Shown here: piece after piece, positions 1,209 through 2,446 of the stretch
Position numbering within the stretch: the first letter of the stretch is position 1
Layout of the letters: the number at the start of each line of letters is the position of its first letter
IMG/VR virus record: IMGVR_UViG_2681813004_000013
Coordinates: 1 to 10,226 of that record
Length of the DNA: 10,226 nt
Strand: one strand, 5' to 3'
Source: a virus
Lineage: Duplodnaviria; Heunggongvirae; Uroviricota; Caudoviricetes
The notes under the pieces: generated by a model
Databases searched by the model: none
What the model saw: the letters and a program-made list of their open reading frames with translations, nothing else
What the model was told of the DNA's origin: nothing
Program-made: the position numbers and the translations under genes

Positions 1209-2141
1209 TTATTTCCCCACCAGCTCGTTTATCTCTTTCACTGTCTGGTTAAACCGCTCTGACTCAAGCTCAACACCTAAGGCCCGACGCCCCAGCGCCA
1301 TTGCTGCTTTTATTGTGGAACCGGATCCCATAAAAAAATCAGCAACCAGATCACCTGGTCGACTACTGGCATTGATTATTTGCCTGAGCATATCCGCCGG
1401 TTTCTCACACGGATGTTTCCCCGGGTAGAACTGAACGGGTTTATGCATCCAGACATCGGTATAAGGCACGGAGACTGATACGGAGAAATAGCGCCGGAGA
1501 GATTTAAACTCATCCAGCAATTCAGAATATTTGCGATTCAGTGAATCATAAGATGCCACCAGCTGGTGGTGTGGTTGTTCCAGTTGTTGTTCCTGAAACT
1601 TCTCTGCCGCTATACGGGAAAACAGTGCCTGTAACTTCCGATAGTCAGCCTCATTCGGCAACTGCCACTGACTGGCACCAAACCAGTGGGAAACCATATT
1701 TTTCTTACCTGTGGCTTCGGCAATTTGTTTTGCCGTTATACCCAGTTCGGCACGAGCATCCCTGAAATACGATATCAGCGGTGCCATTATGTGCTGTTTG
1801 AGTTCCCTTTCTTTTGCCGCATAGCCGTCACTTTTGCCGCGATATGGCCCCTGGTAATGTTCAGCAAACAGAACGCGCTCTGTGGCAGGAAAATATGCGC
1901 GCTGACTTTCTTTATTACACCCATTCCAACGTCCGGACGGCTTCGCCCAGATGATATGGTTAAGCACGTTGAAACGTTCACGCATCATGATCTCAATATC
2001 AGATGCCAGGCGATGCCCACAGAACAGGTAAAGGCTTCCGGCAGGTTTTAACACCCGCCAGAACTGGGCCAGACAGTGGTCCAGCCACTTAAGGTAATCT
2101 TCGTCCCCTTTCCACTGATTGTCCCAACCGTTAGGTTTCAC
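1209..2141 (-). CDS. DNA methyltransferase, N6_N4 (beta-class, CcrM-like) family; apparently lacks the N-terminal DPPY catalytic region (possible 5'-truncated remnant)
   Basis: C-terminal motifs HPCEKP and DFFMGSGST (motif I, FxGxG) plus internal [12 protein letters not shown] and NHIIWAKP match beta-class MTase signatures. No D/S-PPY motif is found upstream of RVLKP in the ORF or in the in-frame upstream extension, which runs into tRNA-Thr. The first start codon is GTG at 2141, with AAGGGAG about 10 nt upstream. Confidence 0.6.
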
Positions 2142-2187
2142 CTTCAGTCTGCTCCCTTTGGCCGCTCGGGAACCCCACCGGACTTGA

Positions 2188-2263
2188 TGGTGCCGACTAC
2201 CGGAATCGAACTGGTGACCTACTGATTACAAGTCAGTTGCTCTACCTACTGAGCTAAGTCGGC
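2188..2263 (-). tRNA. tRNA-Thr (anticodon UGU)
   Basis: Minus-strand 76-nt sequence GCCGACTTAGCTCAGTAGGTAGAGCAACTGACTTGTAATCAGTAGGTCACCAGTTCGATTCCGGTAGTCGGCACCA folds as a cloverleaf: 7-bp acceptor stem, D-arm GCTC/GAGC, anticodon stem ACTGA/TCAGT with loop CTTGTAA (UGU), T-loop TTCGATT, and an encoded CCA. One A-C mismatch in the T-stem. Confidence 0.8.
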
Positions 2264-2265
2264 AC

Positions 2266-2341
2266 TGGACCGCCACCGGGGACTCGAACCTCGCACACTC
2301 AACTTAAAGGGTTGACGCTCTTTCCTGATGGCTAGTGGCGG
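2266..2341 (-). tRNA. Atypical tRNA-like gene (positional anticodon UUU, loop CCUUUAA); possibly degenerate
   Basis: Minus-strand CCGCCACTAGCCATCAGGAAAGAGCGTCAACCCTTTAAGTTGAGTGTGCGAGGTTCGAGTCCCCGGTGGCGGTCCA has a perfect 7-bp acceptor stem, T-loop TTCGAGT, encoded CCA and a perfect 5-bp anticodon stem TCAAC/GTTGA. Position 33 is C instead of U, the D-stem is only 2-3 bp, and the T-stem has one A-C mismatch. Confidence 0.5.
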
Positions 2342-2342
2342 T

Positions 2343-2418
2343 TGGTGGCCCTTGCTGGATTTGAACCAGCGACCTGGCGATTATGAGTCGCTCGCTCTCA
2401 CCACTGAGCTAAAGGGCC
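2343..2418 (-). tRNA. tRNA with CAU anticodon, ileX/ileZ-like (tRNA-Ile2 reading AUA after lysidine modification, or tRNA-Met)
   Basis: Minus-strand GGCCCTTTAGCTCAGTGGTGAGAGCGAGCGACTCATAATCGCCAGGTCGCTGGTTCAAATCCAGCAAGGGCCACCA: canonical cloverleaf, anticodon loop CTCATAA. It is close to the E. coli ileX sequence as I recall it. Confidence 0.85.
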
Positions 2419-2446
2419 GAGCCAAAAAATAATAATCAGATGAAAA

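Follow-up and report, generated by a model that had tools for sequence, protein, structure and literature searches.

This report concerns a DNA methyltransferase open reading frame (ORF) in a 10,226-nt stretch of caudoviral DNA (IMG/VR record IMGVR_UViG_2681813004_000013, positions 1 to 10,226; referred to here as the window), which is the entirety of contig AOTC01000173.1 from draft assembly GCA_001447405.1. We read this ORF as a 5'-truncated, almost certainly inactive remnant of an M.EcoGII-family gene in the late operon of a lambdoid Escherichia coli prophage, lying in a three-part mosaic that would have arisen through entry of host DNA at a prophage copy of the tRNA gene thrU; we place the probability of this reading at roughly 70%. 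An original prediction, made from the sequence alone, had proposed that a recombination junction at the adjacent tRNA cluster took off the 5' end of the methyltransferase gene along with its catalytic DPPY motif. That proposal held up, and the breakpoint was mapped to positions 2144/2145. The junction does lie at the tRNA cluster, but the partner sequence is a 35-nt 5' fragment of the host tRNA-Tyr gene tyrU rather than tRNA-Thr; what is new relative to the prediction is the identification of this partner as host thrU-tyrU DNA. Feature coordinates are collected in Table 1.

The ORF encodes a beta-class N6/N4 methyltransferase, as had been predicted from its RVLKP, NHIIWAKP, and C-terminal motifs. 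RVLKP was located at residues 29 to 33, NHIIWAKP at 61 to 68, HPCEKP at 243 to 248, and motif I (FxGxG), which binds S-adenosylmethionine (AdoMet), at 268 to 276 as DFFMGSGST, a string invariant across the alignment. Pfam model PF01555 (N6_N4_Mtase) matches the ORF with 127.3 bits (gathering cutoff, 26.7 bits), covering only profile positions 20 to 220 of 221, and the match is not lengthened when the upstream in-frame sequence is added. Neither the ORF nor the in-frame upstream translation contains DPPY or any other (D/S)PP(Y/F) version of motif IV, again as expected. The upstream frame had been described as running straight into tRNA-Thr; it does meet a stop codon inside that tRNA gene, but 43 nt (2187-2145), made up of an 8-nt spacer and 35 nt of tyrU, intervene between the tRNA 3' end at 2188 and the methylase-derived DNA, which spans 1209-2144.

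The extent of the truncation was established by comparison with intact homologs. By tblastn, the 350-residue methylases of phages mEp460, cdtI, Ayreon, and SfV are 97 to 99% identical to the window protein across all 310 residues. For three 350-residue proteins that are 99% identical (mEp460 gp53, the cdtI protein, and P0001), the match begins at residue 41, and in the annotated 1,053-nt mEp460 coding sequence it begins 120 nt in. In a three-way alignment with exact indexing, the intact gene reads GAT CCG CCG TAC TTC (D35 P36 P37 Y38 F39) followed by AAG GTG AAA CCC (K40 V41 K42 P43), where the window reads GGGAGCAGACTG followed by AAGGTGAAACCT. Exactly the first 117 nt (39 codons) have been deleted from the gene, methylase DNA in the window begins at codon K40, and the GTG start of the ORF is the internal Val41 of the 350-residue protein. 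Residues 1 to 40 are missing from the product; a loss of 40 to 50 had been anticipated. This subfamily does not naturally start at the truncated position, in that close homologs in a search of 5.8 billion proteins are essentially all 348 to 352 residues long and the N-terminal DPPY block, DLIVTDPPYFKVKP, is conserved in every full-length homolog aligned. In intact homologs, DPPY occupies residues 35 to 38 and RVLKP residues 69 to 73, a separation of 34 residues that falls within the predicted 30 to 45. A 310-residue protein that is 82 to 84% identical (P0020) was considered as an independent truncation 6 nt away, but its 1.5-kb Logan contig opens with an Illumina adapter and it was not relied on. 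On that contig (SRR28318431_5078; locus L008, 1-240), homology begins at the Y38 codon, and the upstream 200 nt gave no identification.

By sequence comparison, the intact protein is of the M.EcoGII type and not CcrM. The window ORF is identical to M.EcoGII at 248 of 309 positions (∼80%), and M.EcoGII has the same DPPY block; the M.EcoGII sequence used was machine-read from the supplement of PMC11551740 and carries a few character recognition errors. The earlier description of the enzyme as CcrM-like did not survive, as the score with the NCBIfam CcrM equivalog is 52 bits (cutoff, 830) and the alignment is confined to the C-terminal AdoMet region. M.EcoGII is a 349-residue beta-class enzyme with an N-terminal DPPY, encoded on a prophage of E. 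coli O104:H4; it methylates adenine in any sequence context and is silent in the lysogen, and its constitutive expression is deleterious to the cell (PMC5778455). Like M.EcoGII and M.EcoGI, which methylate adenine at N6 without sequence specificity and come from prophages of E. coli O104:H4 (PMC5778455), the window ORF is prophage-borne, belongs to the beta-class N6_N4_Mtase group, and has the target recognition domain region and C-terminal FxGxG in common with them, with the DLIVTDPPYFKVKP block present in intact alleles; unlike them, the window copy is devoid of residues 1 to 40, DPPY, and strand beta4. For the allele group at 99% identity typified by mEp460 gp53, M.EcoGII-like specificity would be expected. 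The nearest solved structures are those of small beta-class methyltransferases and of M.RsrI.

Immediately upstream of the breakpoint, the 120-nt tract that is 100% identical to the E. coli chromosome was found by megablast in essentially all E. coli genomes, where it is annotated as tRNA-Thr followed by tRNA-Tyr. Its source is the thrU-tyrU-glyT-thrT operon, located between coaA and tuf (tufB). The identity runs through thrU, the spacer, and tyrU nt 1 to 35; unlike the host operon, the window has no remaining tyrU, glyT, thrT, or tufB, and the fragment sits in prophage DNA. The tyrU fragment stops after G34, within the anticodon, at a point where the host sequence goes on with TAAATCTGCC. No complete tRNA-Tyr cloverleaf was found in the fragment by ARAGORN or Rfam, and it is not a functional tRNA. 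The break between G34 and U35 (window 2145/2144) presumably coincides with the bond cut by colicin E5 in tRNA-Tyr, which is most likely a coincidence.

Comparison with related prophages places the two flanks of this tract in different parents, with siblings matching up to 2187 and methylase DNA beginning at 2144. The window thus reads, in sequence, as a left parent, 42 nt of host-only DNA (2186-2145), and a right parent of the mEp460 type. On the left, positions 3500-2187 match at 99.2% identity a prophage from strain Z1323CEC0019, in which the order is ORF6N, a small ORF, an AraC-like gene, tRNA-Ile, tRNA-Lys, tRNA-Thr, tRNA-Gly, and a class II holin, with no methylase. The "Lys"-Thr pair is common to many E. 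coli prophages at 100% identity, but only up to window position 2187; sibling prophages diverge from the window after CACCAT and continue with AT and glyT. The tRNA-Gly that follows prophage thrU and TAT reads identical to host glyT. This tyrU-less junction (CACCA-TAT-GCGGG) is common to three diverged prophages, among them the sibling type at 99.2% identity, and is also present in sequenced lambdoid phages (phi467 and vB_EcoS-689R5, for example); no phage record has tyrU between thrU and glyT. Because the left half of the window is nested in a tyrU-less clade, the tyrU piece is most simply regarded as a secondary acquisition from the host. On the right, mEp460 has nearly the same methylase 3' end, intergenic hairpin, and holin as the window, and the divergence of these elements from the Z1323CEC0019 type is clearly greater. 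The methylase genes of mEp460 (gp53), cdtI, Ayreon, and SfV (orf48) occupy the same site directly upstream of a class II holin and are followed by the same hairpin; unlike the window gene, they encode 350 residues from an ATG of their own and lie behind a small hypothetical gene instead of tRNAs.

The widespread prophage Thr/Gly pair is itself identical to host thrU and glyT in three of the loci compared (L004, 4548-4701; L002, 4139-4292; L005, 4448-4601) and resembles the host thrU-tyrU-glyT block minus tyrU and spacer (about 205 nt). The same 154-nt unit is present in phages phi467, 689R5, 606R7, and PhiR47_1. We found no paper describing a host-operon origin of this pair, and a search of the literature on thrU copies in prophages returned nothing relevant.

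The arrangement in the window is rare. An exact scan with a junction 30-mer gave 0 matches in GTDB species representatives, IMG/VR, and JGI metagenomes, and a junction-spanning megablast against 5,426 complete E. coli genomes found no place covering both junctions. The exact 310-residue protein is recorded on contig AOTC01000173.1 only.

Under the reading that we favor, entry of host DNA at thrU, the left parent would have been a prophage carrying the AraC-like gene and tRNA-Ile/"Lys"/Thr, of a type that normally continues with Thr-Gly-holin. Its thrU copy, with 77 to 78 nt of perfect identity to chromosomal thrU, would have served as a homologous anchor, and host DNA would have been copied or recombined in for 42 nt beyond the end of thrU (spacer and tyrU nt 1 to 35). 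The other end would then have been sealed by illegitimate recombination to an mEp460-type methylase, just past the DPPYF codons. A two-step route, in which gene conversion restores tyrU between phage thrU and glyT and an illegitimate join to an mEp460-type phage follows, would give the same product. In either case, the event would have cost the gene its native start and the protein its N-terminal hairpin and helix, its catalytic motif IV, and core strand beta4, and it would have set a tRNA-derived sequence resembling a Shine-Dalgarno (SD) element 9 nt upstream of Val41 (GTG). In the transformation literature, homology-facilitated illegitimate recombination combines one homologous anchor with one illegitimate end. 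The structure of the window is consistent with the footprint of such an event, with a 77- to 78-nt thrU anchor, a short foreign insert, and next to no homology, or none, at the other join. It differs from the known process in that the "foreign" DNA would be host chromosome entering a prophage, and in that the event is here known from its footprint alone.

Several observations weigh against the favored reading. The junction is known from a single 10.2-kb draft contig, with no independent confirmation or intermediates, and no prophage was found in which thrU-tyrU-glyT had been restored or in which an intact methylase directly followed the tRNAs. In its simplest parse, the tyrU/methylase join shows no microhomology. 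There is similarity between tyrU nt 53 to 63 (ACTTCGAAGGT) and the methylase breakpoint (ACTTC-AAGGT), with an empirical p of about 0.016 to 0.034; a parse through this 5-nt AAGGT overlap, which is suggestive only, needs a second deletion of 23 nt between imperfect CAGACT(TC)G repeats. For the intact protein, the AlphaFold model used below is of moderate overall quality (mean predicted local distance difference test [pLDDT] score, 62), and the inactivity of the product is deduced.

A route with no fresh transfer from the host would start from a captured thrU-tyrU-glyT block upstream of an intact methylase and require one deletion in cis, from tyrU nt 36 to methylase nt 117. We consider this unlikely. 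The prophage Thr-Gly pair does look like host thrU...glyT minus tyrU, with the flanking T and AT in common with the host, so that a thrU...glyT block was evidently captured from a host once, and other pieces of the thrU-tyrU-glyT-thrT operon are present in other phages. The tyrU-less junction in diverged prophages, including the 99.2% sibling, nevertheless nests the window within a tyrU-less clade; tyrU lies in the cluster in no genome or phage searched, and the methylase of known relatives is upstream of the tRNAs or absent, never downstream. That the two flanks match two different phage types also argues against a simple deletion. A chimeric assembly, in which the draft assembler misjoined a prophage, chromosomal thrU-tyrU, and the methylase of another prophage, would account for a junction seen nowhere else, and it is made conceivable by the fact that the window is one whole draft contig and by a thrU repeat of at least 77 nt in chromosome and prophage, a classic misjoin site. 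We hold it to be improbable, since the junction between tyrU nt 35 and methylase nt 118 contains no common repeat at which a graph-based misjoin would be expected, the best local similarity there (10 matches with a 1-nt gap) being 18 to 23 nt away. Two independent errors 42 nt apart would be needed, and the contig is reported in 2 samples.

The position of the tyrU breakpoint within the anticodon loop, after G34, raises the matter of a site-specific (integrase-type) or nuclease-directed break, with the join as the scar left when integration or excision at an attachment site in a tRNA gene went awry; the anticodon loop is a sublocation favored by tyrosine integrases. This explanation is very improbable. 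The tRNA 3' half is not restored, unlike at real attachment sites, the partner site is inside a coding sequence without likeness to the loop, and only late-operon genes lie nearby, with no integrase, repeat, or att-like duplication. Equally hard to credit is a natural short isoform or functional noncatalytic subunit, that is, a 310-residue DPPY-less partner or regulator of intact paralogs. The accidental SD element is fairly strong (-7.6 kcal/mol at 9-nt spacing), and beta-class dimers sometimes include a degenerate partner (PMC7544214). Yet no homolog family starts at this position (the sole similar 310-residue call being that on the adapter-contaminated contig), the protein is known from one contig only, the upstream sequence is plainly a tRNA fragment, and core strand beta4 is missing.

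Translation of the 310-residue product from the mosaic is plausible. The GTG start and AAGGGAG element noted in the original prediction are present, but the element is tyrU sequence and the GTG an internal valine codon. At the native start of the intact gene the anti-SD duplex reaches -2.4 kcal/mol, versus -7.6 kcal/mol for the tyrU-derived element, which is not strongly sequestered (probability of being unpaired, about 0.62); the fold of the leader RNA shows no unusual structure (z = -0.22). Activity is another matter. Motif IV, at the C-terminal end of strand beta4, binds the target adenine, and beta-class enzymes are thought to need dimerization, the partner subunit being degenerate in some cases (PMC7544214). 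AlphaFold models residues 29 to 35 (IDLIVTD) of the intact protein as a beta strand that ends in DPPY and follows a hairpin and a helix, with pLDDT values of 79 to 83 for residues 11 to 30. The deletion therefore takes out core strand beta4 in addition to the catalytic motif. The product is almost certainly catalytically inactive, with no DNA methylation expected of it, and it may not fold. A dead protein that still binds AdoMet or DNA had been foreseen; with DPPY deleted, we likewise take it to be dead, but the loss of core strand beta4 as well makes binding doubtful.

Other disrupted copies of the 99%-identical methylase allele occur on other E. coli contigs (P0027, P0107, and P0130), namely, two C-terminal fusions that lose FxGxG and one 319-residue form that starts at residue 32. 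In the fusions, residues 1 to 299 are joined to an Rz-like lysis protein and residues 1 to 290 to PF26078/PF26079 domains. A breakpoint hotspot was considered and rejected, as these three copies break elsewhere. Together, the copies fit recurrent decay of a potentially toxic methylase gene, possibly under selection against the enzyme.

Table 1. Features of the truncated methylase locus and its surroundings (window coordinates; all relevant features are on the minus strand)
Feature	Position	Strand	Basis or remark
Class II holin, 71 aa, mEp460 type, start of lysis cassette	926..1141	-	Pfam PF04971; alignment
Terminator-like hairpin (GC-rich) and T-run, between methylase stop and holin start	1186..1202	-	Identical in mEp460; annotated "terminator" in phage Ayreon
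5'-truncated M.EcoGII-family methyltransferase ORF	1209..2141	-	GTG start, 310 aa, without residues 1-40 including DPPY
Recombination junction, tyrU ...CAGACTG / AAGGTGAAACC... methylase codon K40	2144..2145	-	Three-way alignment, exact indexing
5' fragment of tRNA-Tyr, tyrU nt 1-35 of 85	2145..2179	-	Comparison with host locus L003
Host-only DNA, 42 nt: spacer CAAGTCC and tyrU 5' fragment	2145..2186	-	In no related prophage or phage
Tract 100% identical to E. coli chromosome: 1 nt, thrU, 8-nt spacer, tyrU nt 1-35	2145..2264	-	120 nt, megablast E = 1e-54
SD-like AAGGGAG from tyrU fragment, 9 nt upstream of GTG	2152..2158	-	Anti-SD duplex, -7.6 kcal/mol
thrU-tyrU 8-nt spacer TCAAGTCC	2187..2180	-	Alignment with host
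tRNA-Thr (TGT), identical to chromosomal thrU, also in sibling prophages	2188..2263	-	ARAGORN, Rfam, megablast
Degenerate tRNA "Lys" (TTT)	2266..2341	-	ARAGORN only; derivative of prophage tRNA-Arg(TCT) by alignment with relatives
tRNA with CAT anticodon; tRNA-Ile in annotation of related prophages (ileZ type)	2343..2418	-	ARAGORN; Rfam tRNA, 72.5 bits

The cluster had been described as containing three tRNAs, and ARAGORN does call three, but the Rfam tRNA model supports only the first and third (2343-2418 and 2188-2263). The middle one fails that model, scoring 17.8 bits against tRNA-Sec only, and is probably a tRNA in decay. The anticodon loop of this tRNA reads CCTTTAA, compared with CTTCTAA in the tRNA-Arg(TCT) of the CFSAN029787 prophage, so that position 33 would be C instead of the near-universal U, and the D-arm of the window copy has lost 1 nt that sibling prophages retain.

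The late-operon location proposed for the locus was confirmed by gene Q (5183-4617, minus strand), a pR'-like promoter (4620-4591), and a terminator (4529-4513) upstream and by the holin downstream. The promoter-like site, TTGACT-18-TATATT, comes directly after Q, and a hairpin with a T-run follows ∼60 nt on, which is a typical pR'/tR' arrangement (4513-4620, minus strand). The internal terminator-like hairpin ahead of the lysis genes would require Q-mediated read-through. A parallel had also been drawn to Shiga toxin (Stx) phages, which carry tRNAs followed by stx in the late region. The parallel is sound as to the site, between Q and the holin; the tRNAs, however, are Ile/"Lys"/Thr, and the window has no stx ORF. 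Late-region tRNA clusters of lambdoid and Stx phages (ileZ-argN-argO and an Ile-Arg/Lys-Thr-Gly variant) lie between Q/pR' and the lysis genes and are co-oriented with late transcription, as in the window, and both open with a tRNA of CAT anticodon followed by a derivative of tRNA-Arg(TCT). In the window, a copy of thrU comes third, the tyrU 5' fragment stands where a glyT copy would usually come fourth, and the downstream cargo is a dead methylase where Stx clusters have stx.

An AraC-family regulator gene lies just upstream of the tRNAs (2447-3160, minus strand), with homologs at the same position in O157:H7 prophages. Its best NCBIfam likeness is to the acid resistance regulators YdeO and GadX, far below the cutoffs; we take it to resemble the prophage-encoded PatE/Psr-type regulators of enterohemorrhagic E. 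coli. A 51-residue ORF for a Hok/Gef-family toxin (PF01848; 7339-7494, minus strand) lies in the early-right region and precedes the genes for DUF968, RusA, and Q.

A more speculative role for the product, which we regard as a long shot, is that the tRNA-derived SD element drives late synthesis of a DPPY-less subunit that heterodimerizes with the M.EcoGII-like enzymes of coresident prophages, damping or redirecting their toxic nonspecific adenine methylation. If so, the subunit would be a bacterial analog of METTL14 and MTA9, the catalytically dead beta-class partners. As it stands, the locus holds a pseudogene from a known family of enzymes, with an unusually legible recombination scar, and current understanding is unchanged. 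The truncated protein clusters with 350-residue "site-specific DNA-methyltransferase" proteins and would probably be annotated automatically as one despite the missing catalytic motif; the ORF should not count as an active M.EcoGII-like enzyme in methylome prediction. Taken with three further copies of this allele that were disrupted independently, it exemplifies the repeated decay of a methylase whose expression is harmful. The scar itself offers a clean natural example of how phage copies of host tRNA genes may act as portable homology, giving host DNA a way into a prophage and allowing late-operon cargo to be scrambled.

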